From NCBI GenBank assembly GCA_002633005.1, contig NMRA01000357.1, positions 324,341 through 388,340 of the forward strand: a stretch of DNA of 64,000 nt, given 5' to 3'. A program made the position numbers and the translations under genes. Below, one piece after another: positions 26,901-63,332 of this stretch. How positions within the stretch are numbered: position 1 is the stretch's first letter; each line of letters begins with the position of its first letter. This stretch comes from Phoronis australis (lineage: Eukaryota > Animalia > Phoronida). The notes under the pieces were generated by a model. The model saw only the letters and a list, made by a program, of their open reading frames with translations, was not told where the DNA came from and did no database searches.

Positions 26901-29190
26901 GAAAAATAGTGCATACGGTTGGTGCATCAGCCGAATCCAATACATGAAAAACCTGATTCATTTTGTCGTTATCAGCGTGTACTTCAAGAAATTTAACCTG
27001 TGTACACAAATGAAAACGAGCTGACGAGCTAGAGACTTGACTCAATGGTTTAGCAGTGGGGTCCAATGGTAATTTATCTCATGACCTTTAGAACACCATT
27101 AGATGAGAATCTCGATACCGGTTTCCGAGGGTTTTCATAAATTGTAGTAACGCGTCAGCTACAAATTTTTTCAAGGAGAATGCCACCCAAAAAACAACCT
27201 ATATTGTATCAATTTAAATCGAGTAGTTCTTCTCGATAACGGCAGATTTGGTTGCGTTACCTGACACCTGTCGGCAGACGGAGGTGTTGAAATTATCCAA
27301 TGGCGTAATTGGTTTCACTCGCAGTCTGTTCAGCGGTTCACAACACGGGTTACTGGTGTCAGCTTATCGCTTCAATTCATCGTTTAACACCAATAAATCA
27401 TCAAACTTCGATGTAAAAACCTTACAAATAACCTAGTTCTTATAAAAACGTGTTGTCTTATTTCGCTGTTACGGATATTTTGGTCTTGGACACACCGTAG
27501 CCTACAAAATTCGGCAGGCCAATTTACCAAGGTCCGTAGCAGGAGTTTGGGGTTTGTTCGGAGATAAATTCGAAGTATTCTTCCGTTAAATATAGACTGG
27601 AGAACCTAAATCTGTGTTGTTTATACTTGTGATTTTTTTAGTTCTAAACACACAAAGCGCTTGTTATCTCGGCCAGTAGCTCGGAACCCGATCAGGCCCG
27701 TCGAGGCCGGACTGATTCATTATCCCGGCCAGTGGGTTGGAACCTGATCAGGCCCGTCGCGGCCGCCAGGACTGGCACTAACATAAACCAGCTTGAGTTG
27801 TAAACTAAACCTCCAGTCACGAAGGACTAAAATATTGAGCCAAAGAAATAATGAGCACGTAATTATTTATGTGAATTAGCCACGAAACTGAAAATCTACC
27901 GTGACTTACTTGTCGGGGTTCGCGAAATTGGGTTCCCCTTCCACAGACCGTCAGGGCAAATGTTATACAGTAACAATGATTTGAATAATATATTTGTATT
28001 TCTAAATAAAGATTCCCCTAACGTGTGACAATAGCATATAAAATCGAGTAATTTTTTCGCAACAGCTTTCTGTCAGTAAACACTGAATGGGCATGCGCTC
28101 ACATGGCCTAGGTGCCAATTACCTTTGTTGCCGGCATCAAAAGCCGGTAACGCAGTGGTTTATTGACTACTGGCTTCTCAAAAGATTTGCACTCACGAGC
28201 ACTTCAAGACATTACAAATTGTATCTAGTGAAACAGACTTTGTTTCAATTTCATAAAAGCATTAGTTAGGATCATTTTAGGGTGAGAATAATTCATTTAG
28301 AAAGAGAACGCAGAATAATAAACGTCTACGTGGCAACTCGCCCGGCGCCAATTCCGACTTAGTCAAGAGCTCATCCGACGAAGATTTTACGTGTCGGACC
28401 ATTAGGTTTCACAGGCTATCAGTTCGATCCGGAATACACTGATCAAGAAATACTAGAGAGGCGCCGTGAACATGCATAGGCGACGGAACGTATGGATAGT
28501 TCTTTGGTAATCCGGAATTCGTCAGAGAAATCACCGTCGATGAAATGCCTGCCACAGACACGGAGATACATGTATTTCACGGCCTCATACTTGCTATCAA
28601 CAGCATACCTTTCATTCTTCACTACCGCGAACCACATCCTAAGCGGCATTTCGGGCTCTCGAGATAATAGAAAAAAAGATATACCCGCTGTTTTCGCAGC
28701 TTCATAGTTCGGACAAGCGGGAACCGATGCACTGCAACATAGCGGCATTCACTCGAAGACGAACCACTGACGTCGCTGCGTCGCTTCTCACCTGCCTCAC
28801 AGGTTAACGCGACACATCTCGGCAGGGTGAAGTCGGCGATGAGGATATTGACCGATTAAGACGGTAAAAAAGACTAATTAAATCGGGTGGCATTCTCCTT
28901 TAACAGAACCATCCACGCAGTGGTTGTTGAGAACGCCTTCTACCAGACACTGACGAAGGCATCAGCAACAACGAGGACGCAACCCCCTCTGCCGACAGAT
29001 GTGGTTTTCAAATGACACTTTTCGGTAATACCACTAGGTCGTAGCAGCAACTTAAATGTACCTCTGAGGTGATTGGTGAATGCGATAAAATTAATATTAA
29101 ATATTATATTTTGCAGGTTCCTCACTATTTTTGGCCTATCATACAGGTTGCGTGATGGTCGCCTGTGCAGTTGTCCTGAGTATACTGTAA
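8972..29190 (+). CDS. Multi-exon gene model: predicted GPI-anchored ShKT-IgV-IgV-EGF cell-surface protein (~429 aa)
   Basis: Ten phase-compatible AG/GT-bounded exons: 8972-8996, 10254-10301, 11101-11124, 12122-12268, 13176-13559, 13960-14019, 17471-17851, 22821-22905 (or its duplicate 20944-21028), 23367-23428, 29117-29190. They sum to 1290 nt (430 codons including the stop) with no internal stop. The three small 5' exons are the least certain. Confidence 0.7.
10254..10301 (+). CDS. Putative signal-peptide exon (VLVVAFCGLHRYFASG)
   Basis: ctgcttttag acceptor and a weak AG|gttcgt donor, phase 1-1. It completes the signal-like N-terminus MNTQSLCLVLVVAFCGLHRYFASG. Confidence 0.5.
10841..11067. 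mobile_element. MITE with CATGCGCGCACCCAG TIRs and 5-bp TSD AATAT
   Basis: Perfect 15-bp TIR with AATAT on both flanks. A related copy lies at ~25415-25577. Confidence 0.8.
11101..11124 (+). CDS. Putative 24-nt micro-exon (GGNHAPAV)
   Basis: tgtgtag|...G|gtatgg, phase 1-1. It is optional for the reading frame. Confidence 0.4.
12122..12268 (+). CDS. ShK toxin-like (ShKT) domain exon
   Basis: ECTDLAGPFCKALLKRWSYKQFCTNQSAYQHTASSNCQRSCNFC has the six-Cys ShKT pattern (C-x-D...C...C...CxxSCxxC). Strong polypyrimidine-cag acceptor and gtaagc donor, phase 1-1. Confidence 0.85.
13176..13559 (+). CDS. Immunoglobulin V-set domain exon 1
   Basis: GRSVTLECTY...KW...RYQGRAEI...YLKLKQLTEDDEGLYTC has the B-strand Cys, C-strand Trp and DxGxYxC motif. 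tacag acceptor and gtgagt donor, phase 1-1. Confidence 0.9.
13960..14019 (+). CDS. 60-nt linker exon (PCDQVQDQTGTLAEEDCPGR)
   Basis: ttttacag acceptor and G|gtatgt donor, phase 1-1, open frame containing two Cys. Confidence 0.7.
14524..15653. mobile_element. MITE-like element with ~100-bp imperfect TIRs
   Basis: GTGTAAACCAGATATCCC(A/G)GAGTCGAAAACAG... is inverted at both ends. No clear TSD. Confidence 0.65.
17471..17851 (+). CDS. Immunoglobulin V-like domain exon 2
   Basis: GGKTILRCHY...IQWTF...EPGTYTCIV...NSTYVDM. tatag acceptor and gtaagt donor, phase 1-1. Confidence 0.88.
18520..18985 (+). mobile_element. IS3EU/integrase-type DNA transposon 5' remnant
   Basis: Repeated CGAGAT motifs, then MDSTLDRSDAIRDLFKLRLTKKEINDVL...GIPRRNNY..., resembling the N-terminal HTH region of these transposases. 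Confidence 0.4.
20944..21028 (+). CDS. EGF N-half exon, duplicate copy (within probable assembly duplication)
   Basis: RQGSPCYNEEFCLNGGSCYDTDDISFC. Identical to 22821-22905. Confidence 0.55.
21520..22375 (+). mobile_element. Penelope-like element reverse-transcriptase fragment, decayed (partial duplicate at 20014-20500)
   Basis: IVIRRADKSNQYVIMD...GYLYGRPTSHK...MSLDANSLFTN are PLE RT N-terminal motifs, with frameshifts. Confidence 0.8.
22821..22905 (+). CDS. EGF-like domain N-half exon (C1-C4)
   Basis: CYNEEFCLNGGSCYDTDDISFC. tttttaacag acceptor and AG|gtagga donor, phase 1-2. Confidence 0.85.
23367..23428 (+). CDS. EGF-like domain C-half exon (C5-C6)
   Basis: RCATGFSGMHCQHQTSSLKGK. caacag acceptor and AG|gtaagg donor, phase 2-1. 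Confidence 0.85.
23837..23904 (-). mobile_element. tRNA-derived SINE head
   Basis: A box TGGCGCAGTGG and B-box-like GAGTTCGAGT. No complete cloverleaf. Confidence 0.55.
25624..25902. other. Assembly gap (N run) after a poly-C tract
   Basis: Run of n characters. Confidence 0.99.
25903..26445 (+). mobile_element. Non-LTR retrotransposon (CR1/L2-like) RT fragment
   Basis: GVLQGSVVGPLLFWIYFND...YADDS, followed by W...W and HLGILIDEKLSF motifs, with stops. Confidence 0.85.
27174..28899 (-). mobile_element. Second Kolobok-type family element with a decayed THAP ORF (28443-28748)
   Basis: 15-bp TIR AGGAGAATGCCACCC at both ends, with flanks TTCA and TTAA. MPLCCSASVPACPN...W...RVCGRHFIDGDF is a THAP C2CH pattern. 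Confidence 0.75.
29117..29190 (+). CDS. Terminal exon encoding a GPI-anchor-like hydrophobic tail (GSSLFLAYHTGCVMVACAVVLSIL*)
   Basis: ttttgcag acceptor in phase 1. Small residues are followed by a hydrophobic tail ending at TAA. AATAAA lies at ~29360. Confidence 0.65.
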
Positions 29191-30396: not shown

Positions 30397-33300
30397 TTAT
30401 AGCTGCGTCATTTTAACGTCCACGTCCTCCTCGCGTTCCTTATGTTCGTTTAAGCCTACGGTGAAGTCTCTCTGTCCCTTCCTCCGTGCGATACAGCTCA
30501 GCACCAGGTAGATTAACGCCAGTGACACGGCGTAACCTATCTCTAAATAAAACAACGAATAAGGCGCGACGTTATCGAAGAGATACCCTCCAAGGTATTG
30601 GTAAATGAGCCCACCAACCCCAGTGCCAATCATGAGTACACACACCGCCATACTAGTCATGTCCATGTAAAGATTTGCCCAAGACATACCAGAAGGGAAC
30701 ACCGGGGCTATAAAGAAGCCAAACGCACACGTGAAAATCCACAGTACCAATTTTTGACGATAGCCGGCAAAACTGAGTACGAGTGCAGAAGCCAGAGCTC
30801 CTACTATTTCAATAATCAACATGTAACCAGGAGCGATCAAAAAAGAAACGAGCATACCAGCGAATCGTCCTCCTGTGAAAAATGCCCAGAAAAATGTATT
30901 CAACGTCGCCGCTTCGTCGCGGGTGAAAAACTCTCCGTTATCGAACTGTGTCCTGTTGTCGACTACGTAAGAAAATAGGAACTTCCCGTAAGCTCTTTCT
31001 CCACCGGCAACATGGATGTAAAATAGGAACAAGAAAATCAACATCAAGATGCCGAACAACAAATCTCCTTGCGCGCATTTGGCAGGATTCAATACAGCAA
31101 AGAACCGCTCTTTGCTTTCATGCAATTTAAAACCTTTCGGGGGTCCAACACAATAAAATGCCAGCATCACCAAAGCGATTGCGAAGACAATTACAGCTAT
31201 GATCAAGTACGCTACGTTTATCCTCGTTTCGGAAAGACCACCGGATGCGGAAGTGGCGTTCAAGGCGTCTCCAGTATCATTAAGTTCCTTCGCCAAGAAT
31301 GGCCGTGCAAGTTGCGGCGCAAGTATGGCGCCAAATCCAAAGCCAAAATGAAGAGACTGCATTGGTGCTGCTGACTTATCTCCCCACAGCTTCATACACA
31401 TGGCGTTTCCACCTGGAAATGAAATAATTGCACACTGGTATGAATCGCCATTGGCGCGAAGGCGCTCTATGTAAGTCATCTCGACATTGTGGCGGTAATT
31501 AATTTGTTGGTCAATCAGCAGCAGGTCGCAAGATTGAAGCATGATATGCCAAGAAAGTACCCACGCGCTGATGTCACAAACTGCTTCCAGGTGCAATTTT
31601 AGACACTAACTTTATATTTATGAAAATCTGTAATTTTGACGTCATACCAGATAACGTCGTAATAAGTAAATTAGCAATCTTTAAGAAGCTGTACCGTCGT
31701 GGACTCGGCAAATTCCATCTATCTTTTTTGTTACATTATCTGATTTATTGGTTTGGTTGTAACCAATGTAGTGTTCCTTTTGAAATACAACGGACTTGGT
31801 GGGAAACCCCACTTCATTTCACAGAGAGGAATTAAATCGCGTAGAGACTTTCCGCATTTAAACCTCTAGAGTAGAGTTCTATCCCAAATCATGAACCAAA
31901 GCAAAGTTCTACAAAAAGGTCGCTCCATGTGACTTTAATTCTATTTCAATGTTATCGATGAGGCCTTTAAAAGAATGACACTGCCTGTGTATTTTTGGCG
32001 TGCTTTTAATTTTTGATAATGTATTATAATTTCTGTCGTAGTTGTCAGAATTTCCTTTCTGAAATGCCGTTTTAAATCTCGTTCGACACTTAAATCAAGA
32101 TACCACACCAAGTACAGTACGTTGACCAATTACAAAAGTCAGATTGCTCATTCCTCCAATCATAGGAACCTAATCTCAAGTCTTTCAATAAGCAGGGGAG
32201 TCATCAAGCAGTTATTCGAGGCAACACTAGTGTACTTGTTACCTGCGTTGATAATAGCTTCCGCCAGGCCGTTGATAAAAAACATAGCCGACATCCCAGC
32301 TTGCACTACAAACCACGGGGTACACAGCGTGCACACGGCAGCCGCCATCATGGAAAGTGACATCAGAAGATCCACGTGACTTCTCAGCTTGTCGCACAAG
32401 AGTCCCCCTAGAGGTGCTCCAATTATTGCACCGATACTCTTAAAGATGAGTGACTGCGATATACCTTCAGTGGTCGTCTTAACCAGATCTCTTAGGTCTG
32501 GCAAGGTTGGGCCTGTGATCTCTAGGAACAGTCCCTTTAAAAAACATGCATGTGAGTGATCTACAAAATATTGATTAATGGAGTGACACCAAAATCATTA
32601 GCATTAATTGGGCATTTGCGGTACCGGTATTATAACTTGACGTGTCACTGACACGTTTAAAATGCATCTTGTAGCGAGTGGTTCAACGGAGTTGACTTAC
32701 ATATACATTTGGTCCTAGCTAACTGTACGACCCGGCAAGATCCCCACTAAGAAGAATGTGAAATTTGATTTCCAACTAATCTGCCATTAATTGGGTCACG
32801 TAACTGTACCTTTTGAAAAAATTAGCGAAAAAGAAAGATACATACATGGCAAAACAACAGTATCAAAATGACTAACTGTCGTCTGATGTAAATATACGAA
32901 GTGAAATCTCAAAGACGTTAAACGGTAAAAACTGACTAGATTTACCCCAGCTAGATGGGGAGTTGATTTGCATATCACATCATAAATGGCCTTCTCTGCG
33001 ACATATACTGTAAGTCTAGGTATCGACAAGACTGTTTCACCCAATGTGGCAATTTCAGCCACAAACTTGTGCCACGTCATTCATGTCCAAGCATTTTATC
33101 CCTGCATTCATGTCTCTGGTTTTCATCACCGTTTTGCTCTTTCCTAACAACACTTACAATCATGTAGTTCTACAAGACTTTTGAGTGAAAGTCATCCAAG
33201 TCATTAAATTCTAGTTTATATTATTGTTAAACATTCTAAAGAGATACAAAGACACTTATCTCACTTTGGTCTGATAACATACATGAAAAACGACTCGTAG

Positions 33301-35706
33301 ATCACACAGATTTCAAATCAATTGCCCCAAAATAGAGCTCTACGTGTATGACCCTTGTCAACTCTCCAACGAGGAACAAGTCTGAATTAGTTTTACAAAG
33401 ACCAGCGTGACTAGCGCTTCTGTGAGTTAATCGACTACTGAGGAGAAACCCTGGCAATCTCGAACCATTGAATTGTGTTTGTGACATAGCGAGCAAGACA
33501 ATTTGCTTATCCCGAAAATGTCCTAATTTCGCCGTATCACGTGACCAAACGATTTTGGGCGTATTCACTAATGCATGGTGCACCACTGAAAAAAGTGGGA
33601 TTAAATTCCCCCAGCCTCTCTGTGGTGCACCGCCTATAAGACATGGGTAGCGCAGCACATAAAAAGTTGGGCTATAGCCCCCCCCCCCCAGCACCCTATG
33701 GTGCGCCGCCCATGTTGCATTCTTGTAAAACGACAAATAAACGTTAACTTAGTTACAAGCAACTCATAATTGTTGTAACAAAAACATTTTTGTCGTTTTA
33801 TTAAGCAAAAGCGCACCATAAAATGAAGTTCAGAATTTAGCCAATACATTAAAGGCGAAGACAACCTTTTTCATGTCATTTTTAGCAAAAAATAAGGTTC
33901 GTTGATTATCCCAGACATATTTTTCACTTATTTACAGCTTTTTGGAATTTAATTAATTACTCGTCTTCTTCTCAGGAAGTGACGTTTCGGGAGGCAAGAA
34001 TTTCGCGCCAATTTCTTTTCATGTAGTCTGACTGTGAGAGCAGTCAAGTCAGTCAATGTTCTACCTCAGTTGTGATAAGTTCGGTCGTCGTTTGCTTTTG
34101 CTTACGAGTCAGTCAACATGCCACGCTGTTGCTGCGTACTAGGGTGTACTCATTATCGTCTCACGTACAGAGGCAGAGTTGTCCCACTTGCCCGAGTGTC
34201 CCGCGACACACTCCCACGGGAGGGTGATCAGCGAACCCAAACTGCTTACATCCCGCCGTGCGACTCCCTCACCACACATCTGGCACCTTCAAAATAGCTC
34301 CAATACAAGTCCACAATAAACTTATCAAACTTAGGCTCACCGATCTGTTCATTGGATGACGAACTGTCCTCTTCACTGGGTGTCGAACTCGGCCGGTATT
34401 CACTCCCACTACTCAACATCGCTGCAGGGCTGCTTACAGGCTCTGGGCTAGGGACAACAGCACAGGGCGAATCACTGCTAGTTCCCGGAATTGCACGCAA
34501 TGGGGTACGTTCGGAGGGACGGGTGACAGCTAGATGAAGTGCCTCCAGTCACTGTTTATAGTGGCCACAGCTCGCGAGGCTTAGGCTTCAAAAACGCACT
34601 TCTCGGGGTTGGCGACGGAGCACTGCCGGGAATCTTCAGGCGTTGTTTCGCAGGGACCTTCATCAATTCAGCGTACATATCTCTGTCGTAATCTGACGGC
34701 ATAAAATGCTTGCCGCACACTCGATAACCCTCCACTGCTTCGTACGTTGTGTGCGGGTAGCGCTGCGTTCTTCACATGAACGAGCTACATGTAGCCAAGT
34801 ACGGCGAAGTGTGTCATCCTTCGCAAGCGACGCAAGGTACCCAAAGCGCGTGTGAGACGATAATGAGTACATCCCGGCTCGCAGCAACAGCGTGGCATGT
34901 TGACTGACTTGTGAACAAAAGCAAACGACGACCGAACTTATCACAACCGAGGTAGAACAGTGACTGACTCGATAGGTCTCACAGTCAGACTATAATGAAA
35001 AGAAATTGGCGCGAAACTCTTGCCTCCCAAAACGTCACTTCCGGAGTAGAGGATGAGAAATTAATGAAATTACGAAAAGCTGTAATTAAGTGGAAAATGT
35101 GCCTGGGATAATCAACGAACCTTATTTTTGCTAAAAGTGACATGAAAAAAGGTTGCCTTCGCCTTTAAGCAATCGCTTCCGACCATGCTGTAGACTGGAA
35201 CCTTTGGTAGTAACTTTCAATAAACCTGAGCCAATTATCACAATCACTAGTCTTGATGTGAGTCTTCGCTATAGACTTGCTAATAAGACGTCATTTGGAC
35301 CCAGTAAAATAAAAATGAAAATGCCAAATTTATAAGCATTAAAAACAATTTGAGCACATTTTACGTTCCGCTTTTACTTTCTAAGCACTTTTAGGTATCA
35401 TTTCTCAGGGCTATGGATCTGCAAAAAATCAAATTTGCTTCCGAGATTACCTGAATGGGAAAACTATGAACCTGTGAAATGTTTGGGAGCGTTGCGGGCC
35501 AGATCGCGTCATCATAATAACACCAGGCACACCATAGTAAACATCTTGATAGACTTCCAATATCAACTTACTATACTGATCCAGACCAAAATCAACCCAG
35601 CTTGCTTTATAAGTCGGTATCTGAAAAAGGTCGACTCTTCGGTAGACGGAGCGGTCAGAGGTGCTTGTGAGCCGGACGTTGAAATTTGCTCGCCTTTGTC
35701 CGTCAT
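30397..35706 (-). CDS. MFSD4B: MFS transporter, MFSD4/sodium-dependent glucose transporter 1 (NaGLT1)-like, ~480 aa, 3 coding exons
   Basis: Exons 35706-35572 (MTDKG...LILVWISI, phase 0), 32534-32243 (GLFLEITGPTLPDL...GGLLCDK...IINAG) and 31412-30397 (GNAMCMKLWGDKSAAPMQSLHFGFGFGAILAP...FWAFFTGGRF...APVFPSGMSW). These motifs are typical of the MFSD4 family. The symbol indicates family, not proven orthology. An acceptor at 35716 implies an upstream UTR exon. Confidence 0.88.
33853..35164 (-). mobile_element. Non-autonomous Kolobok derivative with ~310-bp inverted arms, in an MFS-gene intron
   Basis: TTAA TSDs at 33849-33852 and 35165-35168. AGGCGAAG(A/G)CAACC termini. The internal decayed THAP region is homologous to 63260-64000. 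Confidence 0.9.
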
Positions 35707-38700: not shown

Positions 38701-40735
38701 GTCTTCAGGGCTTTAAAATACAAAGTTCATTCTGGTTTGTTTTCGGAACGTGCAAGTTTAATGTTAGTCTTATTTGTAAATGAGCTCCATAGATGACGTC
38801 ATAAAGTGTGGACGTGTTTAAGGATGGTTGCTTATATTTCAGTTACAGCAATGAACACGAAAAGTCGCACTGTGATAATTATTCATTTGGCTACATGTGC
38901 ATGTATATGCTATTCCAATGTGATTGAGGTGCAGATGTTTTGTTATGAAATACCGTGTGTATTTGTACACTGCATTAGTTAATGCATATAGATGTACACG
39001 TACAATGTAATTTGTTCATCATAAGTATAACTTTTACTGTCGATCATCATCCTCTTCGACAATGTGAAAAACATAAACACGCTTTACGGTGAAAAACAAG
39101 TTTATTTGGAAGAGAAAAAGGAATTCAGCTGCTATGAATTCCGATATGATTAAATGTATTTTTGCAAAGTAGGTGACAGCTGGAAATCGTTGATTTGAGC
39201 GTGATACTCTCGAGACTGGAGTTACACCAATCACGACACGATATCTGCTGACAACCCTACAGAGTTGCAACTTTTCTTTTCATTCTAAGCCCTGTTTAAC
39301 TGCAAGTTAGAAAAAAATCCACGAGATCGGTGATTTTAAATGATGTTAATAGACAAAAGAAACAAAAATCCTGGCATGCTATAGTTCACCATGAAGATTA
39401 ATAAGATAGGCTTTCATTTGTTGATCGTCTGCTCTGGGTCGACGGATGTTTACGGTGTTATCTGTTGATTTTCACCAGAGAGCCTACTTGACCTGAGCCA
39501 GTGTTACCAGAAGAGCATCCTGCCACGCCCGGCTGAAGCAGCGACAACAGTGACCCTTTCTTGACTGAGATTTACCTCCTCAGTAGGACAAGTCCGTGAA
39601 TCAGGAGTGCGGTTCGCTGATGCAAGTGATAAGTTTGCTTTGCAGCAAAAAACTTCCCTTTTGGACTAGAAACAATGACTTAAAACTCACAATTGAGGAA
39701 ATATATCCAATAATTCAACATCGTAGCCAAATATTCCAGTGGCGACCATGTTTCTAGGATACACTAGTAAAGTCACCTCCTCTCGCGTGATTTGTGTGCT
39801 ACCGCTTGGTCTCATTTATCTCGCAAAAAATTATAAGACGGAAAGGTAAACAGTTTTAAGGCAAAACGCAATTCACGGTTGTTACCAAAAGTGTGACGCC
39901 ATGTTTCCCAATAATAAAATGGGTTTTAATTATGCAGGTTTATGGTAAAACGGGAGATGGTTTGACATCTGCGGCGACATTGAACGGGTATTTACCACGT
40001 TCACGTCAACATGTACTAGGTTTATATAGGAGGTGAAAACGTTTTTGTGGCTAAACTCCTGCGAGCATTTATATCACTGGCGTTTTTGTGTTAGTTAAAG
40101 TGATAGGAAAATCTTCATCGCTTTGGCAAGCATGTGAACGGAATATTAGAATTGACCAATAGGGAAGTCGACATTTTGCTTCAACTAAAAGCGCAGAAAC
40201 GTGCCGTCGACTGCACCATTGGCAGGTGTCACCCAAGCGTAAATCTCGTGTGATTGAAAAGGTAACAATGTGTACAACTGACTAGACGGACGGTGCAAGC
40301 CATAAAAAGTATGCGTACCTTCTGGTGTAACCAGAACTGGAAATTCGCAAAGCTGGGAAATAGACCGCTGACCTTGTAGGGTCATTCCCTTAGGAAGAAC
40401 CACTCAAGACACGAGATACTTGTTTAGGCAATGACAAAAACACTTGACACTTTCGTCAGAACAAGTCTGCTAAGTGCCCGTCTTCATTCGGCTGCTCATA
40501 GCTGCAGTCGAGGTCATAATTTGAACTTGTTGTGCTGACCGTGTGCTCTTACAGTATGTTCAAACGTTGGTTACTTCTGCACAGTATGCGTTAGACCCCG
40601 TCTACAGGGCGTGTCACAGCCAGCCGATCCTCTTCCGGGATAAAAGTGCATCTACTTGATTTGACGCTATTGACCATTACGTCAAGTCCAATGGTGACAC
40701 TTGAACCACTAGAAACAATTACTGCATTTTGCGTG

Positions 40736-40743
40736 TATAAAAG
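40736..40743 (+). promoter_or_regulatory. TATA box of the lipocalin-fusion gene
   Basis: TATAAAAG ~75 nt upstream of the ATG. The paralog has a similarly placed TATA. Confidence 0.5.
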
Positions 40744-40812
40744 CGAAAGACGGTTTAGTTTACCTTCATCAATTCTTTCACGGAGCACGATTAGCAATCA
40801 GAATAGCCCACC

Positions 40813-40938
40813 ATGGAGCTAAACTTGGTCGCATTAGTGGTGCTCGTTATATCACTTGACTTGGTCATAGCTAAGCCAGTACAAGAATCCTGCTCTTTCG
40901 ACCAGGCTGGAGTCTTTGTAGCTGTCGACCCTCTAAAG
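40813..40938 (+). CDS. Signal-peptide exon (MELNLVALVVLVISLDLVIAKPVQESCSF...DPLK)
   Basis: CCACCATGG Kozak context, hydrophobic core, AAG|gtaaga donor. Confidence 0.85.
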
Positions 40939-43900
40939 GTAAGACCTACCAGAAGAAGGTTTTTAACACTCCTCATGTATTTTTCAATGCAGCATCACGT
41001 TTGATTCCATTTTCTGAGAAGTGAAATAAGACAAAAATGTGGTCTTACACTCCGCACAGCTACTTTTGAAAAAGTATTAAATCTCCCTTGAGCCAAAGTG
41101 CACAGTCTCTGAGAATATAAACACAACAGCTAGTTAGCTTAGCTAATTTGTATCAATTTTTTCTATACTGTGATGCTCTCATAACTACTTGGATAAAACT
41201 ATTATTCTTCGGGTGTGAAGTGAAAGCGCAATACTAAGAGTCTGTTTTAAAAGTGCTCCTTCCTTTGCATTCATCAATTTAAAACACGTAATGAATTTCG
41301 TCAGTCGAGAAATATTATTGAAATATGCACATTTCGTAACGTCCATCCTCGTTTTTTTGTCTTATTTTGCCATTAAATTTTAAAAGGTTTATTTAAAAAC
41401 TGGAGGAGGTTTCCATCAAAACCTCGTTGCATATTGCGGTAGTTTCCCATGCTGCCATTATGGCGTTTTGTCCATGCCCATCTTGCAGAGTCACGTTTAG
41501 TTTTATCTATTCACGTCATAATAAATGACATTTTTGCAATCCCCCTCTTGTTTTACTTTGCACCATAGCTCATGGCGTACCCCGGGCAAAATCGATTACG
41601 ATAAATTAAATTTTACTTGTTAAATGCATTTATCGTCATTATTTTTACATTTATCTCTTTTTTTTGATATCAACCCTTGGGGTTTATTCTTCATTACTCA
41701 TCTCTATTTATAGCCTCAAGGGCCTACTTTTGAATTCATACATTTCTCTAGGCGACACCTGATTGGTCCCCCATATTTCCTTTGTTCAGTTCAACGTGGT
41801 CTAGCTCATTCAGTAGCCTACCTCGTCGTCTCGGCTAAGCCTCGGGATTTTGACGAAATTTCCAAGATATTTTGCCCATGTGGTAAACCTGAGACTCGTA
41901 CAGGATTCTCTATTTTTCTTATTTTAGTTCTCAGGAAAGTGGTATATTTACCAGCACGGGCATCGTGAAGGAAAATGGGTTAACGCCTACATGACAGTTG
42001 AAGACGCAACCATTAAATTCTATGACTACACAGATGCGATGTAAGTAATTGTTGGCTACAACAACCTGTGACATTTTCGAAGAACTGTGTCATATTCTAC
42101 CTTTACGAAAACATATCTGGGTTATAACAAAATTATCCTTTGTACATTAACTAGGCTTTACTAGAAATTTTCTGTCTCAAAGTATACGAATCTGCTGTGA
42201 GACGCTGTCACTTGAAAATCCGCAATAAGCAAGCCACTTTTAAGATTTCATTGATGAATGTCACTTTAATTAGTCCATACCTTACGATGGCTCAGTGGCT
42301 AGAGCGGAAGGTCCTGGGTTCGAGTCCCTGTCGGGGGCAGAAATCTTTTCGGACTTGTATTCATTAGGTCACACGATGTGACCAAAAAGATGGCATGCTG
42401 ACGGGACAAAATGTTCGCTACTTTTGTCTTGTTCTGTAGTGCGAACAGAGCATGCGTAACTTCCATAGGTAAGGTACTGTTATGACAACTTGTGTTCTAA
42501 GAGAAATTCACATGTAGTCCCCCCCTCCCTCGTCCCTAAAGACTGATTTACGCACGGTTCACACATTATTCATGTTGGTACAGACGAAAGCCATGAGCTT
42601 AGCTCACTTGAATCTGTGACTGGTAGTCACCGGCTTACGTTACAAAAGTTTTATTCTTAACAAATCAAAGAAATACATGACGTAGTCCTATGTTTTTGTA
42701 ACTGCTGACACGAAACTTTTACATTTTAGGAAAGCTTCGGGAACGTTCCACTTTAACAAAGACAATGGATTTTTGTTAACCGTAGAAAACCGCACAAGTA
42801 AGTGGCCAATGGTATGATTTGGTACACGGTTTGGCATCACCAGTAAGGTTACGTGAGCCATCGTGTGTAGACGATGGTCTTTAAATTTATACCACTCTGT
42901 CATTGGTTGGGTCACGTGACCATCCATAGGAATGGAAAGGTATTGATGATACAGTATTGTGAATTCTCAAATACACTGCTACAGCTTTGTGAAACAACAT
43001 TTTCATTTTACTGTTTTGATTTTTGATATCTTCTTGAACAAAAGTTGGACATCCCAACAGATTTTTGAAGATTTGTACATGTGAGCGCTTCATATAAATC
43101 TGATCAGCCATACGCGTTTAAGGGATATGAAGTTGCGAAGTTTTTCGAATTTGGACAGTTTCTTAAGTCCAAACTAGTTGTTGCCAGAAGGTGCCAGCAC
43201 GACTTAAGAAAAGTGCTGGGAAAAACGGGTAACGTTGGCCAAAAACCTGGCTTGGTTACCACGTGGTTCACTGAGTTCTTAATCAGATCGTACAACACCA
43301 AGTTGCACAAGTTGCCTTACCCGTTTCCTCTAGGTCGTTCTGAGAACAGAGGGACCCTAAGCGAGATTAAAACTAAGTGAGTGACAATTAAACTTGGGCC
43401 GGTCTAAGGCGTGACTAAAATGTGTCACGACTACCAGCCTTTTTACAGGGTACAGTTGAAAAAAATATGCATTACGAAACCCTGTTAGAAGATCAGTGTA
43501 TAGTCCAGAGTCTACTGGCATTCTGGTAAATTGCATATCGAGCACGGCTCAAAACCGTGTGTAATAGAAACTGAGGTGGATTGTTTTATTTTTTTATTAA
43601 CAGGTGTCGCTGGCGTGCTTTACTTTGACGCCGACTATCAAGCGTCCGTTTTATATGAGCGACTTAAAGTAGACAATGTCGCAGAGGGCAGAACCTATTT
43701 ACTGACAAGGCAGCCAGAGGTGGACCAGGACACCAAGAAAATGGCGTCTGCCGTCAACAAAGGCGCATCCAAATTGTGCCTAAAAGATCCTCAAGGTGAA
43801 CAATGTGCTGCTAATAGTTTTAAAATTCACTTGTATATTTCCATTAGTGTTTGAAGTGATTCCCCTTTACTTCAAATGCATAAATGTATTAGATTTCGAG

Positions 43901-46900
43901 AATGCCAAATAATCACAAACTGAGAAATTGCGAGACATTTAAAGGTGTACAGTTTGTTTGGATGCCCCTAACTACGCTAATGTGCAGCAGGAATTAACAA
44001 CAATGCTATTTGAACATCATCTACGCAGTTGTATTTATTAACAACTTATAATGTGAAACTAAAAAAATTTGCAAATAGGTAACCTTTGCACTAATGGCGT
44101 ACCTTGGGTGCTCATATAACCTACATCATATGGTGTTATTCCCCAACACCACGCCGCGATACTTACCTTACACGATTGAGAGATTTACGGCGAATCGTTT
44201 GCGACACAAAACTCGTCCTTAAACACATTTTCAGCCTACTTCATATTCACATCTTGGCCTTATGTTGTGTTTTTAACTAATTTGACCAAGCAATCACAGA
44301 TACAAGGAATTGGAGTGCAAGTTGTACTTCAAATATTACAAGTTACACGTTTATACATTGAAGGAAACTAAACTCAAAAACGGCGCCAAGGAAGCATAAA
44401 CACTGCCTCTTTTGATTTAAGACAATTTCGTAATAAATTGTAATCGATGGACCCAAGTTAAGAGCCATCTGCCAGGTTGGGTACAACTGACAATTGCTTA
44501 ACAGTGGCGGATTTAAGGTTGGGGACCAAGGGGGCCATGGCCCGCTCCTAAAATTATCCCAGATTCCATTTGGTTGTTCGAAGGTGCGAATGACTGACGT
44601 TCAAAGTCCTGCCCATGCCCCCAACTCGAAATCCTGGATCCACCCCTGCTTGAGACCGTGTTCAGCAAATAGATCTATTGTTTCGCGTCTCAAGCAATAA
44701 CGAACTGTCGAAACAAGCTGGTTCCGGTTTATAATATCAAGTAGTCTGAATCAGAAATCAATTTCTGTGGCAGAGGATTGGTTTGCTGAACCTTCAAAGA
44801 GACTGGAAAAGCACATGCTATTATTAATCTGGTTTTATGTCGTTCCTTCCTCAGATTAGAGAAGACTGCTGGGTTTGAGGGAGAATCCCTAGTCTTTGTA
44901 GTTTGGGCTCAGACCCAAGATGTTGGCTGGTCGCGGTGAATCTCAGGGAACGTGGTCTTAATCACTAAAACGTTACCCAGATATTCTTCTTCGTCTGAGG
45001 TAGGAAGTAGTTGGGACCGAGTTTACATCGGGAAAGTGAGCATTCGACAAAATGATCACGTATTACTTGATAAAAATGACGAAAAGTGTAGTAAAAATAT
45101 TACATTTGGGTTAATGACATTTTTTGCAGCACAAGCTGTGGAAGCCATTACTAAAGAAGGGAGTGGTGATGTACAGCGCAAAATGGAACATAGTGGAGAC
45201 GTAGGCAGCGGTGAAGAAGACGGCACTCGCGTGGAAGGCAGTGGTTATGCGGAAGGCAGTGGACATGTGGAAGGTAGTGGTGACGTGACGGGTAGCGTTC
45301 AGGTGGATGGAAGTGGTCACGTAGACGGAAGCGGTCGCCTGGAAGGGAGTGGGGAGTCAGGTAAAATCCACCGGTTATGAATCTTTGCATCAAGATTTTG
45401 ACAGAATTTGCCGTTGCTTAGCTGATAGATGCATCCGTTTCAACACGTAATCGGCATAAACACTTCATTACGCAACATAGTTTCATATTTACCTGATTGC
45501 TTTTTAGACAAGTCAGAAGGCTCTGGTGAGCACATTTGTCCCAATGTGATATGTGCTATGCACTGCACCTATGGATTCGAGAAGGATGAACACGGTTGTA
45601 ATATCTGCAAGTGTGTGGCGGAGACATGCGCACTCGTTAGGGATGCTGTCAAAGAAAACGTTAGGAAAAGTTTAGGGGCCGGTTCACCATTGTTGGGAGC
45701 AGAACCTCCGGTCTGCGAGAAGGATGGTAGTTACAGTGCCAAGCAATGCTCGGGCTCCAAGTAAGTCATACATCATGAGACACAATAATCAGTAGGAAAT
45801 CACTATACCACTGCTATCCTCCATAGACGCAGTGACACGTGTATAAGTCATTACCTTAACGTGCAGCTTCTGCCTGAAGCTGCCAATTAGGACACGTGAC
45901 CTGGTCATCACCAACAGTAAATAGGAATTAGCACTTATTCAGTAACGTTCACATAGGCCTTCGGTGTCGATTGTCAAAAATAATAGAGGCTACTTGAGAC
46001 AGCTTCATTTACCATTCTCAAGCACAGACGCTAGGAGTTGCAGTCAGGCTACTTCATATTTAGGCACAAATGTCTGTTTCATGCTAAGCAAATGAAGGCT
46101 GACGTCCCACTCTTACAAACTGCCCATGGTGATGATTGGACTCTACAATTTGTTAAACACGTCTATTTAGTCAATAGTCAAAAGTGTTTACGCTTTATGC
46201 TTTTGACTGCTTCGCTATTCGTGAGGAAATATGGTGGAATTTATTGCGTTTCATCTGTCACTAGCTCTTATTGAGTAGCAGTAAAGTCAAAAGCGACCCC
46301 CCCTCTCTTTGTATCTCTGACAGCTGATCACCGCTATTACACTACAGTAGTATATGGAACGACTCAACGGCCATTATAGCAAAATTAGTGGCAAACAACA
46401 CATACAAGTACATGCCACGTCGAAAACAAAATTCAAGTGATTATTGTTGATCAATAGTGTTTTTGCTCTTTTGATGATAGTAGGCAGATGTCATACTGTA
46501 CGTCGACTTCCAAAGAGTTCTCCCTGATGCTTTTAGCTTTGGTCAAATGGTGAAGTCGTGCGTAGTCACTTGTTTGCTGGACATTTTCTGCCTGGAAATT
46601 GTAGTTGTGCACTGTTAAAGTTTATAGGCATACCGTGAAATGGATCAGCGTGGATTTAAGTGAGATATTTGCTCTTACGCTCGCCCTCCGCAGTTATTCA
46701 ATAAATGTTTTAGACGTGTAATTTTCAGGACATCATGGCCAGAAATTAGTTGTTAGAAATCATCTTACTGTCTACATGTACCACTTATGGTAAATTCTCT
46801 TTGTCATTAAGTAAGATTCAAACATTAGGAATGTAAGACCAAATTTCTGACTTACGTCTTGGGTCTCGTTCCATAAAACAGGGATAAGTAGGTTTTGCCT

Positions 46901-49155
46901 GTTGTGAACGAAGAATCTCATGGCTAATCATAAAACCATCATAGTAAATTCCATTCGTGCAAAAGTTGTGTGAATCGCACTACACCACACAATATTGGCT
47001 GTATACTTGTATCTCTAACGTACACATGTAGGTGATTTTTGATTGTCGTCTATACTGTACAATGTTTGGCGTTGTACTAAATAACGTTTTACTGGTACTG
47101 GTAGTGCAATCGTTTTCCTTGTGAAAAATGCAATAGTACAGTAACTGATTTGATTTGATATTTGAATGAATGTGTATACCTATATGTAAATGTACACGTA
47201 TACATGTACATGTATAAGTGTATGTATACAGTATATACTGTAGCTGTTACATGAAATAACATGTTAAATAAACCAGAGCATCAGGGCACATTGCCGGGTG
47301 TACCAGGTTGGTGATAATCTCTGTCTTGCCTCTTTGTTACATGTAGATGTTACTGCGTCAACTCCAAAGGCAAGATCATCCCAGAGTTCCTGGATATTGA
47401 CAGATGGCACGCTAACTCCCTCACATGCGGTAAGTGGCCTGTCAACACTGGCGATTTCTGGATGCTTAAGACGGGGTAGTAGAATTCACAGCTTTCGAGA
47501 AAAAATTACCACGAAGTCCTGAAATCGGTATAAAACGGAATGCTGGCGGTAACTTTTGTTCATAGGGCGAAATGGTGTTACAACACAAACTATATGGATG
47601 CATGACAAGTGGTAGAATTACCTCATTTGCGAAACAAGGGGTAATTGTTTCTGACATATAAGCAAGTGTTCCGATTTTATGACAAAACGGTCAATGGTAT
47701 AAACTTTGAAAAGATAAGAAGTACCTCTGGCATTAAAAACATTTGCTGAAGAGCGTTGCAGAACCTTCATGAAAGAAGTCACAACCATGTACAGGCGTGC
47801 ATGCATATGCATCTGTTTTTGATCTCTGAACTCCACCGGACTCTAAACACGTACATTTGCCATGGACACAAGTTAACGACAACGCAATTAGAAATATTTT
47901 GCAAAACATGGAGTGATCAAACATCAGCCGCTGTCACCAAAACCTACGCAAATCACACGACAGGGTGGGTGCCGCTGTGTTAGATATGGGCAAACAATCA
48001 AGTGAAGATCAACCGTTTCCCGAGAAAGTATCACAATTTTTCCAAATACTGCTGTCATTGTATTCAAATACGATAGCCTTGCCTAAGTTTATCTCTGCGC
48101 TAGAAAATCACATCGACTGCGTTTCCCGGTCACGACGTTACCAAAATATGAGAAAACAGACTCCAGTCAACCACAGACCATCCTTAGCTGTTAGAATTGA
48201 GTTTTCCGGATTTTAATGTCTGCAATGCAACTCTCTGAGCAAGAATATTACTTTTGGCATCAAAATGACAATTGGCGAACTAATCTCAATACAACCTAGC
48301 AGTTAGCACGGGAGCAACGTAGAATTGTGGGGCAAGTGCGCTATTCAGTGGCGCTCAGCATTGTGGGTAACATAGCAGAATGAGAGTGAGCGCTGGGATA
48401 TTTCGGGTAATAACTGTTGCAGAATACTCAAACGGATTGAGGCGCGGGGCTCAGTTGCCGAATATCTCTCCTGAAAATAGTCTTGTGCCATAAGCCTTCG
48501 TTTACTCTAACTCTCTCTTTTACCGATGTATTTGTACGTATGGTCTCGTGCCTACTACGTTTGTTTCACTGTTGTTCAAGGTTGCGCCAGGGAGTACTTT
48601 ACCCAAACATCTCTCGGCAAAGAAAAACCCAGCGTTCGGTGTGACACGGTTGGCAACTACCATCCGGTGCAATGTTATGACCGTGTTTGTTATTGCGTGG
48701 ACCCGAGCAGTGGCGCTCCAGTCGAAGGCTCGCAAGTACCCCTGGCGGGAAAAGAAAGCTTGGAAGAAAAATGTGCCACTAAAGGTTAGTAAAAGTTTAA
48801 TATGAAAAAAGAAGTAGGAGTGGTACACCTTTATGAATCGTCAGATCAGTGAAACGGAATTCTCATTGAACTTTTGGATTTCGGATTTTCAATGCAATTG
48901 TTTAACATTTGAAGGTTTATTTAAAATTTTGTTATTCACGGCTTCACAAAATACAGTTATATAAAAAACTGAAAAAAATAGTGCTGTTTTATTCAAGGTT
49001 TTAAAAATCTTTCAGATTTGTCCGAAAAGAAGACGGAATCGTCGGAAGCCTCAAAGTCGGAAAAAGAAACAAAGGATCCACAGGTTTTTGATATCGCTGA
49101 GAAAATAGTTAGTGCATCACGTGACGTCGCAAATACTCCTAAATTGTTTAAGTAG
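40813..49155 (+). CDS. Multi-exon gene model: secreted lipocalin / EGSG-repeat / antistasin / 2x thyroglobulin type-1 protein (~469 aa)
   Basis: Phase-compatible exons 40813-40938, 41928-42040, 42730-42797, 43604-43795, 45130-45360, 45508-45760, 47347-47429, 48581-48784, 49016-49155 total 1410 nt (470 codons including the stop). A possible extra 29-nt exon lies at 42440-42468. Confidence 0.82.
41928..42040 (+). CDS. Lipocalin exon with SCR1 (FSGKWYIYQ)
   Basis: GxW motif at the start of the exon. attttag acceptor and gtaagt donor. Confidence 0.8.
42284..42340 (+). mobile_element. tRNA-derived SINE head (internally shortened)
   Basis: A box TGGCTCAGTGG and B box GGTTCGAGTCC. The anticodon arm is missing. 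Confidence 0.55.
42730..42797 (+). CDS. Lipocalin internal exon (KASGTFHFNKDNGFLLTVENRT)
   Basis: ttttag acceptor and gtaagt donor, phase 2-1, compatible with neighbouring exons. Confidence 0.65.
43604..43795 (+). CDS. Lipocalin exon with SCR2/SCR3-like motifs and C-terminal helix
   Basis: VLYFDADYQASVLY (a TDY-like motif) and TYLLTRQPEV (the L-x-R-x-P motif), then a helix and a Cys. Phase 1-1. Confidence 0.8.
44502..44648. mobile_element. GC-rich MITE (CAGTGGCGGATT...ATCCACCCCTG)
   Basis: Imperfect TIR and near-TSD CTTAA/CTTGA. Related ends occur at ~23623, 25325, 53690-54099 and 61167-61460. Confidence 0.7.
45130..45360 (+). CDS. Acidic Ser-Gly repeat exon (candidate glycosaminoglycan attachment region)
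   Basis: Nine SG dipeptides, mostly (E/D)GSG, with an 18-bp/6-aa tandem unit. tttttgcag acceptor and gtaaaa donor, phase 1-1. Confidence 0.85.
45508..45760 (+). CDS. Antistasin domain plus N-half of thyroglobulin type-1 domain 1
   Basis: CPNVICAMHCTYGFEKDEHGCNICKC matches the antistasin pattern. It is followed by TC...PVCEKDGSYSAKQCSGS. Confidence 0.9.
47347..47429 (+). CDS. C-half of thyroglobulin type-1 domain 1 (CYCVNSKG...C)
   Basis: CWCV-type motif CYCV. Phase 2-1, gtaagt donor. Confidence 0.85.
48581..48784 (+). CDS. Thyroglobulin type-1 domain 2 exon
   Basis: CAR...VRCDTVGNYHPVQCYDRVCYCVDPSSGAPVEGS...C. Phase 1-1. Confidence 0.9.
49016..49155 (+). CDS. Terminal exon, charged low-complexity tail (DLSEKKTESS...PKLFK*)
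   Basis: tctttcag acceptor, open to TAG at 49153-49155. AATAAA signals downstream (~49595, ~50510). Confidence 0.7.
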
Positions 49156-51771
49156 TGAACAAAATGTGTTTCGACGTGTGTATGTTAAGGTTTTACCAAG
49201 ATCTGATCATCTCCCTGTATTTTCGAAATTTCCTACTGCTTCACTCCTATTAAAGCATCACTCCTGTGATATGCTTATTCAGATATCGAAAGGAAATTTG
49301 GAACACTGTTTTAGAATGTTCATCTAAAATTGGTTATTTCAACCTCAGTTGTTACTTCACCACTAGCATATCTTCGCTGCCATGAAATGGCGACATTTGT
49401 CCAACAGCCATAATGAATAGTTTGAACCGCTTTATTAAAGTCCGGTCACACCTGTATATGTAGCTATGACGGTCTTAAGCGCATTATCGCAAAAACCTGA
49501 ATCTGCGTGTATTTAGAGACCGAAAACGTTGCATCTTACGAAAAGCTGTGATTACGTTTCGTACGGTCTTCTACCTTCTTGAGCTTCGTCAATGAATAAA
49601 AGTCGACGTTATGACCGTCCCAAGGTTGACGACGTTTGAAAAAGCGGGCCCCACGAGCTAATACATTAAGCGGTTCGACTGCTATGAGTTTCCAAATTTG
49701 CTTCAAAGCTTGTTGGATTGATGACGCTTGCCTTACACAGAGTTATTTTCTTTCAAAGAATCAAACATTTATGTGGTAATGAAAATCTAAAGAGGCTAAA
49801 CGTGTGTTTTAGTTTACTTTTAAAGATATTACTTAACTTGCGCACTTTATTTCATTTTGCAAAATGCAAAGAAATTAGAACCGAACAGGTTGCACGACTG
49901 CATTTTGTTTGCATTGTACAGGTATGTATTTGTCGTTACTTCTTAAACAGTTGAACAGTCAAAACAGTAACCGAATTCATATCATAGAGGCTACTTAGAA
50001 TATACAGGGCACTTGACGAATCGTGTTTTCTATAATTTAATCCCATATTTCGGTCTTAGCTGCTGGGAATTAGGCGTAAATTTTGCTCACATTTCTACAT
50101 GGTTTGTCTGACTTTGTTCTTCCTACATGTAGTTTGCTCGCATCTTTCACGGTTTTTGCCGAAACCTGTGTTAATATGAAAGCATTTTTTCTTCTAAAAC
50201 TGTCATCAAATGCATTCTGTGGATCAAGACGTCCTGGTTCACCCCACAGTCGTCCACAAACTCACCGGAGGTGCGAGCTGGTTGATCATATTTTGTAATG
50301 AGTTGTTGAACTTGAATCGTTTTTAGGATTGCCGAGGAGGCTTACTTTAAATGATGAGTCAGTGTTATTATCCGATATTCGTCAAACTTCAGGTTCAGTA
50401 TACTTTTAAACATATTAAAACAACTTGTCCTTTTTAATTGATTTTTTGCATGTAAGTTTTTTTTTTGTTAAATTATTTCAAGCTCTTCTTAGAACTGATA
50501 TTGGATGACAATAAATGAATTTACTTGGAGAGATATATTTATTTTCTTCTGAACAGTACACATCCAGATCCGTAAACCCAATGAACAGCATCATTTATTA
50601 CGATCAACATTATCGCGTACATTCCGCACGCCTAACATACCAAAAAACAAACTCCTCGTTTTGTTGAAACACTTTTTGACAGGTTTCTAAGTGACAAAAC
50701 AAAAACGTCTAACGTGAGACAGAAAAAATAGAAATGTTACTTTGGATAAATTCATAAGGCATAGAATATTACCTGCCTCATATTGTCCAGATATTGATGA
50801 GCGTCGCCGCATACCTGAACTGCGTGTCTCTTGCATGTGCTTAAAATTAAATCCGTAAGGTGTGTAAAGGCCCGAAGGTTCGACCTTCTCTGAGAGTACA
50901 CCAGATCAAAGGAGTTCAATGCAGTCGTGTATACGACGTTAGAACCGCTATCCTATAGCCAGTTTCACATGCTGTGTTAACTACTGCAGACCGTAACCAA
51001 ATACGTGTTCGCTGCTGTACGTGATACGATACTGTAATTTGTTCTTTAGTCTTTTCATTTTATATATCAATATTTTGTCAACCTTACGTTGTCAATAAAA
51101 ATACTACCTCATGCTACAGTACCTACCGCGTCCATGAAGGTGAGTCTTCACGCATCACACCCCTCATACTCCTATACTGTTGGCTACTGCATCAAACTGG
51201 CGTCCACACTCACAAAAACCATACATTGACCTCCAAACACGCTGCCAGACTGATAACTACAGCTTATATTCTAAAAAATTGGTCTCGGATTCATGATCGG
51301 CGGTGCTCGGTCTCCTTGTCTTTTACCAAACTGGGAGGTCACCGTACTGCACTGGTGTTTGTAATCCGAGGAGTTCTGCTTTGAAGGTGGAAACCGTGTA
51401 TGTTTTTGGGAGCCGGAAGGTACAGTGTATCGTGTTTAGAAGTCAATGAGCAGCGACTGGGTTTGTCAACGGGCCTGTTTCTATTAGTGAGGAATTACGA
51501 GAGTTCTTGCTGTGTCGTTTGGGTAGCCTGAATTACTACAGAAAGAGGGAAGGGTGACAGTAATGAACAACCCGTATAGTAATGAACTCACCTACAAACA
51601 AGATACAAGCTATAGACTGAGAAACAGTCATCGCACTCTAACATACCTATAGAACGCAAAATCACTTGTCAAACATGTATAGAATAGGGAATAACGTATA
51701 AAATAAATCTGAAACTGAAAGAGGCGATCCAGATCCTCGAAAGGATAGTATTATTTGACGAAATGCAGAAT

Positions 51772-59719: not shown

Positions 59720-59842
59720 ATGGAGCTAAGACTTCTTTCCCTGGCACTGCTCACTGTAGCGGTTGGTTGGACTTGCGCTAAGCCGGTTACTGATTCCTGT
59801 GTCGTTGACTATTCAGCCTTTAAACCATCTGGCCTCTTTAAG
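59720..59842 (+). CDS. First exon of a tandem paralog of the lipocalin-fusion gene (rest not found in window)
   Basis: MELRLLSLALLTVAVGWTCAKPVTDSCVVDYSAFKPSGLFK|gtaagg. It shares the MEL...AKPVxxSCxxD layout, near-identical length and phase-0 donor with 40813-40938. Confidence 0.78.
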
Positions 59843-62242: not shown

Positions 62243-62936
62243 ATAGACCAGTAAAGCCTTGCTGGAAGTGCCCAGTGTCCAGACGTGTCGTCCTGTGGCT
62301 TTCGTTTGCGGCGAACGATTATGCATGTAAGCAACAGAGGACAGCAAAATAAAATAACAAGAAGTCTTATTACTGACTTATGCTGTACTTTGTTGCTGCA
62401 ACCGTTTGCCGCTGCAGACGTCCCTAAAAGTGACTTGTCGTGGCCTTTCTAAAACGTGTTTCTGTTTAACTATCCTTTTATTAACATAATGACGTCATTT
62501 TAATATAGTGTATTACAGAGATTACCCACTTCGAAAGCAGATTTAGATGCCGAGACTGCGTTTTGTGCACAGGTGTACCGCACACATTTGTTCAATTATT
62601 AAAGGCGATGGCAACCTTTTTCCATGTCATTTTGAGCTAAAATAAGGTTGGTTGGTTATCCTAGACATATTTTCCACTTAATTACAGCTATTCGTAATTT
62701 TATAAATTAATCGTCCGCTACTCCGGAAGTGACGTTTTAAGAGGCAAGCGTTTCCCGCCACTTGGTTTTCCGTTGACTTTACCGTGCGAATCTGTTCTAT
62801 TCTACCTTTGTTTTGTGCTGTTTTTCAACAATTGTCGCCACCACATTCCATCGGCGTGTATTCTGCGGCAAGATAGGTTAGTAGAGAACTCAACTACGAT
62901 GGATTTGAGGATTGTTTAGTGTGTTGTAAGCTGAAA

Positions 62937-63332
62937 ATGGCTGGAGCCGGTGACCGGTATCACAATGACAGTAGTGTGAGTGACGGAGACCTTGTTCACA
63001 GAAGTGGTGACGAGCAATTTTTTCACGAACATTCAGTGGGTGGGTACATGTTTGAGCCCGAGTATAACGAGGCAGAGTACGCACAGGCACAGGCAGCTGT
63101 TGAGAGAAACGAGGCGGCTACTGAGGACAGACGTGGTGACACATCTTGGTGCAAATGCACTGTGTGCGTTGTTATGCCTACCTCAATGGAATGCTTGTGC
63201 TGTTCAGAGTTCGACGAGGCCAAGCCACTACTGGATATGGTTAAGTGGACCTCCGGCATACCACGGACAGAGGAACAACTGTCCCACTTGCCAGAGTGTC
63301 CCGCGACACACTCCCACTGGATGGTGACCTGA
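62937..63332 (+). CDS. KolX-like (P2X7 C-terminal Cys-rich-like) ORF, 3'-truncated
   Basis: GYMFEPE...RRGDTSWCKCTVCVVMPTSMECLCCSE matches the PYxFEP...WCxCxxCxxMPTxxECxCCxE signature. Homology ends at ~63230. Confidence 0.8.
   Translation: MAGAGDRYHNDSSVSDGDLVHRSGDEQFFHEHSVGGYMFEPEYNEAEYAQAQAAVERNEAATEDRRGDTSWCKCTVCVVMPTSMECLCCSEFDEAKPLLDMVKWTSGIPRTEEQLSHLPECPATHSHWMVT

Follow-up and report, generated by a model that had tools for sequence, protein, structure and literature searches.

A single transcribed gene of nine exons, on the plus strand of the window analysed here (the whole 64-kb stretch of Phoronis australis DNA), encodes a signal peptide, a lipocalin-like domain, an acidic linker rich in Ser-Gly pairs, one antistasin module and two thyroglobulin type-1 (Tg1) domains within one protein. 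All of these parts are known modules and it is their combination that is new, their activities being predicted. The best reading of the product is that of a secreted, uncleaved protein with glycosaminoglycan chains, which would shield matrix, mucus or body fluid from proteases and at the same time bind a small hydrophobic ligand, and we give this mechanism as a whole a probability of about one half, our confidence in the architecture being far higher.

Joining the nine exons by their coordinates gave 469 codons plus a stop, from the ATG at 40813 to the TAG at 49155, with no internal stop codon and with GT-AG borders at all eight introns, in agreement with the one phase-consistent reading frame across all modules proposed in the preliminary description of this DNA. 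The features of the gene are the following:

40734-40741, plus strand: TATA-like box, recognised in the sequence
40813-40938, plus strand: exon 1, with the signal peptide (residues 1-20), the start of the lipocalin-like domain and Cys27; a phase-0 intron follows
41928-42040, plus strand: exon 2, with GKWY (SCR1, 41934-41945), a short histidine-bearing loop 1 and predicted strands A-C; a phase-2 intron follows
42730-42797, plus strand: exon 3, with predicted strands D-E and the sole N-glycosylation sequon (Asn100); a phase-1 intron follows
43604-43795, plus strand: exon 4, with DADY (SCR2, 43627-43638), LLTRQP (SCR3, 43699-43716), a predicted helix and the last strand with Cys161; a phase-1 intron follows
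45130-45360, plus strand: exon 5, the acidic Ser-Gly linker with nine of its ten sites, composed of an 18-nt repeat, and with a polymorphic dibasic RK at residues 183-184
45508-45760, plus strand: exon 6, with the tenth Ser-Gly, the antistasin module (45537-45614) and the first part of Tg1 domain 1
47347-47429, plus strand: exon 7, the second part of Tg1 domain 1 (CYCV)
48581-48784, plus strand: exon 8, Tg1 domain 2 with six cysteines (Pfam E 4e-10)
49016-49155, plus strand: exon 9, a charged tail of 46 residues and the stop, without a transmembrane stretch
49156-50520, plus strand: 3' UTR of about 1.35 kb with AATAAA at 50510, from read depth and signal position

RNA data came from three stranded raw runs of a single study (X2, X3 and X4), of which 18-19% each was examined, and from the contig set of a second study (X1). 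All eight joints were read in all three raw runs, by 22-67 junction reads per joint and run (X2/X3/X4: 41/48/37 at 40938/41928, 31/34/32 at 42040/42730, 42/46/47 at 42797/43604, 25/44/22 at the lipocalin-to-linker joint 43795/45130, 28/34/36 at the linker-to-antistasin joint 45360/45508, 25/31/49 at 45760/47347, 26/50/49 at 47429/48581 and 49/48/67 at 48784/49016), and all of these reads derive from plus-strand RNA by the usual stranded-library convention. One 1640-nt contig of the second study contains all eight joints and both halves of the gene, in pieces from 40749 to 49317; full-length linkage is given, in these short-read data, by the overlapping junctions together with this contig. The lipocalin-like, linker, antistasin and Tg1 exons are parts of a single real transcript. 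The joints 43795/45130 and 45360/45508, for which an RNA check had been set beforehand, are spliced in each of the three runs and in the contig, and a division into two separate genes is ruled out by the reads that span the joints leading from the lipocalin-like to the antistasin/Tg1 exons. A 29-nt candidate mini-exon at 42440-42468 was also rejected, given that it breaks the frame and that the reads splice 42040 straight to 42730.

The transcript starts at about 40750-40790 (the contig begins at 40749 and X2 read ends pile up at 40788), and at its other end read depth persists into the bin 50327-50727 and is zero past it. Dispersed repeats within the introns, at 41400-41900, 42300-42420 and 44000-44620, attract reads of both strands from many other transcripts. 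The cleavage site of the signal peptide was assigned by eye, the most hydrophobic 15-mer being residues 5-19, and since the N-terminus is the sole strongly hydrophobic stretch, the protein should be secreted and soluble. Among the coding variants listed, seven of 16 are synonymous against 22% expected (p 0.04), an excess that can be taken as a weak sign of constraint.

The C-terminal modules are well defined. With the exons scanned singly, Pfam recognised Antistasin in exon 6 (E 6.7e-10, 39.7 bits against a cut-off of 21.2) and Tg1 domain 2 above its cut-off, while Tg1 domain 1, split by intron 6, gave E-values of 3.9e-4 and 0.092 on its two parts. There are six cysteines in every one of the three modules, and both Tg1 domains carry the QC and CxCV motifs, so that the one antistasin and two thyroglobulin type-1 domains originally described are borne out. 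PDB sequence matches of exon 6 were to antistasin, hirustasin and saxiphilin, and Ala260 is aligned with the arginine of antistasin and hirustasin that we take to be the P1 residue of these leech inhibitors; the P1-equivalent position is therefore Ala in the Phoronis module and Arg in the leech proteins. For many Tg1 and antistasin modules no inhibitory activity is known. Like antistasin, hirustasin and Hydra antistasin (PF02822), the module has six cysteines and it aligns with the first two, but it is a single short module of the Hydra-repeat type, as the six-cysteine antistasin repeat is described in PMC7851590, whereas the leech domain is described there as having ten cysteines.

These same modules could instead be disulfide-rich spacers or binding modules of a structural or adhesive matrix proteoglycan, comparable to nidogen or SMOC-type proteins, in which the barrel would be a binding head. 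Ten clustered Ser-Gly sites would suit a brush of this kind, antistasin and Tg1 modules are found mostly in long repeat proteins among the best 150 of the 422 exon 6 matches described below, and an antistasin-like protein of the leech cocoon wall is cited in PMC7851590. However, the Phoronis protein has three small modules only, without a repeat array, the six cysteines are complete in every one of them, and the P1-equivalent Ala is also kept in a related transcript, after a Ser-Gly repeat of its own (85 X2 and 132 X3 loose-ended reads run from that repeat into the antistasin module). We regard a purely structural role as unlikely, though as an alternative of some weight, and prefer a protein with inhibitory modules.

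The linker extends over residues 167-252 and holds ten Ser-Gly pairs at residues 178-249, among 19 acidic and 6 basic residues, which upholds the ten sites in acidic context reported initially; this number was reached in none of 20000 composition shuffles of the linker. Eight of the ten sites fit the E/D-G/A-S-G motif (E/D-G-S-G type) derived from the C. elegans chondroitin glycoproteome (PMC8418075), a source that also describes attachment motifs alone as ambiguous and as no proof of glycan occupancy. The Ser-Gly sites of the linker are, at this level, predicted glycosaminoglycan attachment sites, and the gene is a candidate for an invertebrate proteoglycan core protein.

The nature of the N-terminal domain required more extensive comparison. 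No family was matched by Pfam with exons 1-4 scanned singly, and PDB sequence searches with the N-terminal exons found no lipocalin. Nevertheless, GKWY (residues 45-48), DADY (residues 111-114) and LLTRQP (residues 135-140) align in order with the matching positions SCR1-SCR3 of lipocalin profiles. The profiles were built from retrieved sequences, to which a search of prophage contigs contributed Blc-like lipocalins only. In local HMMER comparisons the domain scored 1.9 bits with 80 bacterial lipocalins (87 of 2000 shuffles as good), 5.3 bits with a profile of 216 domains (13 of 2000), 8.8 bits with 22 eukaryote-type domains (1 of 2000) and 9.1 bits with 23 lipocalin domains of less than 50% identity (1 of 2000), a profile that gave at best 2.8 bits on 341 non-lipocalin proteins. 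The alignment with these 23 domains is collinear end to end, through the early cysteine, GKWY, DADY, LLTRQP, the helix and the last strand. With hhalign no significant match to lipocalins was obtained: the probabilities were 0.09-2.4%, and 4-43 of 150 shuffles did equally well.

After these weak local-profile and hhalign results a custom script was written that scores the whole profile by Viterbi, and here the domain scored -2.7 bits, shuffles scoring -41.5 on average (z 5.8); none of 1000 shuffles and none of 600 real windows did as well. Disjoint sub-profiles gave z 4.6 (10 eukaryote domains) and z 5.7 (13 others), with none of 500 shuffles as good in either case. On the same whole-profile scale the domain lies at about -1 to -19 bits versus 34-182 bits for held-out lipocalins, these having been chosen by likeness to Blc. 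AlphaFold models of single exons were uninformative for exon 4 (pLDDT 47.7), the other such model having a pLDDT of 46.5.

In lipocalins the first intron sits just ahead of GxW. The intron phases across the Phoronis domain are 0,2,1,1 and match the start of the 0,2,1,1,1 pattern described for chordate lipocalins (PMC3184775), the match being one of phase; in tick lipocalins, too, intron position and phase are described as conserved (PMC3695081). The domain can be compared with lipocalins of the ApoD/Blc/insect type (PF08212, PF00061), with which it shares the three motifs in order, collinearity to the last strand and intron phases that begin 0,2,1, and an early N-terminal cysteine is also present in mosquito lipocalin domains, of which the mosquito proteins P0001-P0003 and P0080 carry three to five in tandem. 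In comparison with the ApoD/Blc type the Phoronis domain is very divergent, has two cysteines only (Cys27 and Cys161) and is fused to 300 residues of other modules. The two cysteines are placed like those of the Cys4-Cys160 bond of retinol-binding protein. SCR1 and SCR2 lie closer together than in the lipocalins aligned with it, and the pocket may therefore be small or closed. His52 and His54 (exon 2, 41955-41963) belong to the short loop that follows the GKWY strand, where the barrel is predicted to be open; that they are metal or heme ligands is speculation.

The lack of any library match, the hhalign result and a score far under that of held-out lipocalins could mean that the domain is no working lipocalin, being a degenerate barrel that lacks a pocket or else a different beta-rich fold with motifs that arose by chance. 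Such an outcome appears very improbable, given the z-scores of 4.6-5.8 with independent profiles, the ordered motifs, the matching intron phases and, in small numbers, the three of four mature-domain variants that are synonymous among those listed. The lipocalin assignment of the preliminary description is thus made probable by motif order, whole-profile score and gene structure and finds no confirmation in the Pfam and PDB libraries or by hhalign; the domain is very likely a lipocalin-derived barrel and probably a distant, very divergent outlier of the family.

The order of parts, namely signal, lipocalin, acidic Ser-Gly glycosaminoglycan site and protease-inhibitor modules in one gene, recalls vertebrate AMBP as it is described in PMC7965949. 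The differences are considerable: the Phoronis gene has an antistasin and two Tg1 domains where AMBP has two Kunitz domains (none were found by single-exon Pfam scans), ten Ser-Gly sites instead of one, and four lipocalin-coding exons instead of six. According to that 2021 review, a VRR link in AMBP is cleaved in the Golgi, ahead of secretion; the halves are not described as associating after cleavage, the one chondroitin chain is on bikunin, and the scavenging depends on a free Cys34. The Phoronis protein has no R-x-x-R (furin-type) site in its 469 residues and no loop-1 cysteine equivalent to Cys34, and the earlier claim that it follows the same logic as AMBP was overstated; the resemblance is one of layout only and not of membership in the AMBP family.

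A true polyprotein of the AMBP type, whose cleavage at a dibasic site behind the barrel would set free the lipocalin and leave the glycan-bearing inhibitor as a second product, is improbable. The dibasic RK at residues 183-184 lies 17 residues past the barrel and upstream of nine of the ten Ser-Gly sites, much as VRR is described to precede the chain site of bikunin, but besides the missing R-x-x-R site one Ser-Gly lies upstream of the pair, and residue 183 is polymorphic, being His in the X1 contig (and in 0 of 43, 0 of 76 and 0 of 37 reads of X2, X3 and X4). An uncleaved product is the reading that we retain. As for the independent assembly claimed at the outset, it is likely: the antistasin and Tg1 modules have no relationship to Kunitz domains, and for AMBP itself an origin by duplication and fusion from a C8G/PTGDS-like lipocalin, within the chordate lipocalin radiation, has been proposed (PMC8420045), which together make a shared fused ancestor unlikely.

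The pattern of introns is informative on how the fusion may have arisen. Introns 4, 5, 7 and 8 are all of phase 1 and lie at module boundaries or at most 10 residues from them, intron 6 being of phase 2 and inside Tg1 domain 1; phase-1 introns at module borders are the pattern expected if exons were shuffled onto a lipocalin gene that was already complete. Accordingly, a chain of phase-1-flanked exons would have been added to an ordinary lipocalin gene with introns 0,2,1, and the locus would offer a clean case of such shuffling.

We found no protein or paper with this architecture, as the preliminary description had anticipated in recognising no named protein of the kind, the searches having weak coverage of animals. 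No literature combining lipocalin, antistasin and thyroglobulin was found; papers on lipocalin plus antistasin concern, by their titles, leech or tick saliva only, further titles show no such architecture, and no lipocalin is mentioned in the accessible parts of PMC11310086 or of 10.1101/2025.06.18.660348. HMMER with exon 6 against 1.84 billion representative proteins gave 422 matches. Among the best 150 there was no similarity to the N-terminal domain (lowest E 0.55) or to the lipocalin profiles, nor did Pfam find a lipocalin family in 141 of these 150 (the nine longest left out). Antistasin-like and CxCV motifs occur together in six of the best 150, and because the exon 6 ranking favours repeat proteins, orthologues could be among the other 272. 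Conversely, neither Antistasin nor Tg1 occurs among the 120 listed of 195 long lipocalin proteins, in a search that missed AMBP itself; many of these are bacterial fusions or mosquito multi-lipocalins, so that lipocalin fusion as such is not rare. Word-seeded protein searches, which were weak, gave 0 of 44 candidates for exon 4 and 0 of 59 for exon 6, and exon 6 had matches in 0 of 536 stretches scanned in metagenomes. A protein of the same architecture may exist as an unnamed annotation. The Phoronis protein combines known modules in a new arrangement and is a plausible convergent parallel to AMBP.

Within the species relatives exist, and at least one of their transcripts has the same linker-antistasin-Tg1 run. 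One RNA contig of 1936 nt can be aligned to 45514-45754, the alignment showing 46 differences and 2 gaps, and in a second contig the similarity is to short pieces of both Tg1 domains. Downstream in the window lies the beginning of a tandem relative, 43% identical to exon 1 of the gene over 30 residues (E 3e-5), with a TATA-like box at about 59634:

59720-59842, plus strand: exon 1 of the tandem relative, with signal peptide and, as in the gene, a K-P-V start, an early cysteine and a phase-0 GT donor

No further exons of this relative were found within the 64-kb window; the intron after it, in which a transposon-like element lies, continues to the end of the window, over 4 kb or more. The 1936-nt contig has 760-930 nt 5' of its match versus about 800 in this gene, and this 5' length and the tandem exon suggest that relatives also carry the lipocalin domain. 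At 80% identity no relative reads were found on exons 1-4 beyond the depth of the gene itself, and no orthologue outside the species was found in protein searches, which were weak for animals.

Elsewhere in the window, three plus-strand exons within 12088-17862 possibly form one ShK-Ig gene, one of them being ShK-like (E 0.007) and two of Ig V-set type (13115-13564 with E 1.6e-11 and 17446-17862 with E 0.01), and the minus strand holds exons of a Major facilitator superfamily transporter at 30400-32594 (MFS_1 E 4.5e-4). Related copies of an element lie at 34162-34989, 62598-64000, 7967-8484 and 28446-28748, two of the four having 83% identity over 746 nt, and their reading frames are presumably THAP-like, a label given by eye. 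A 1.2 kb segment is directly duplicated almost without change (20012-21245 and 21888-23122, 98.5%), and a diverged third copy lies near 3360-4080; the arrangement resembles the remains of a retroelement or a duplication introduced in assembly. A 279-base N gap adjoining a C-run lies at 25624-25902.

For the C-terminal half, closer working models than AMBP are testican-1, a proteoglycan with a Tg1 domain described as inhibiting cathepsin L (PMC10889554), and the two-domain thyropins. The Phoronis protein shares secreted Tg1 domains with testican-1 and with the thyropins equistatin, saxiphilin and tick IrThy, for none of which a lipocalin or antistasin module is described. In saxiphilin the Tg1 domains accompany a ligand binder of transferrin fold, which makes it a second analogue of a ligand binder plus thyropin. 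In the mechanism that we favour, a xylosyltransferase would prime several of the E/D-G-S-G sites, and the glycan chains would form an extended acidic brush that retains the protein in the extracellular matrix and spaces its ends. The antistasin loop, with its small alanine at the P1-equivalent position, would inhibit, in canonical fashion, a serine protease of elastase-like and not trypsin-like type, and papain-family cathepsins would be the targets of the two Tg1 domains. The ligand of the barrel, which the single Cys27-Cys161 disulfide would close, would be a lipid, a pigment or something similar, and the protein would leave the cell uncleaved, shielding matrix, mucus or body fluid from proteases.

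In the 2021 review (PMC7965949) the fusion to a protein that is no lipocalin is said to set the AMBP gene apart from all other lipocalins, and the reason why its products are made together is given as largely unknown. A transcribed gene in which glycosaminoglycan sites and inhibitor modules of an unrelated kind follow a probable lipocalin suggests at least two origins of this layout. More tentatively, and at rather less than even odds, the invertebrate family could be a second independent AMBP layout of lipocalin, glycosaminoglycan brush and serine- and cysteine-protease inhibitors with all three functions active. If this is true, the pairing of lipocalin and inhibitor was selected for, and the Phoronis gene would be a natural test of why vertebrates encode alpha-1-microglobulin and bikunin in one gene; if its protein stays uncut, it would show what the joined parts could do together.
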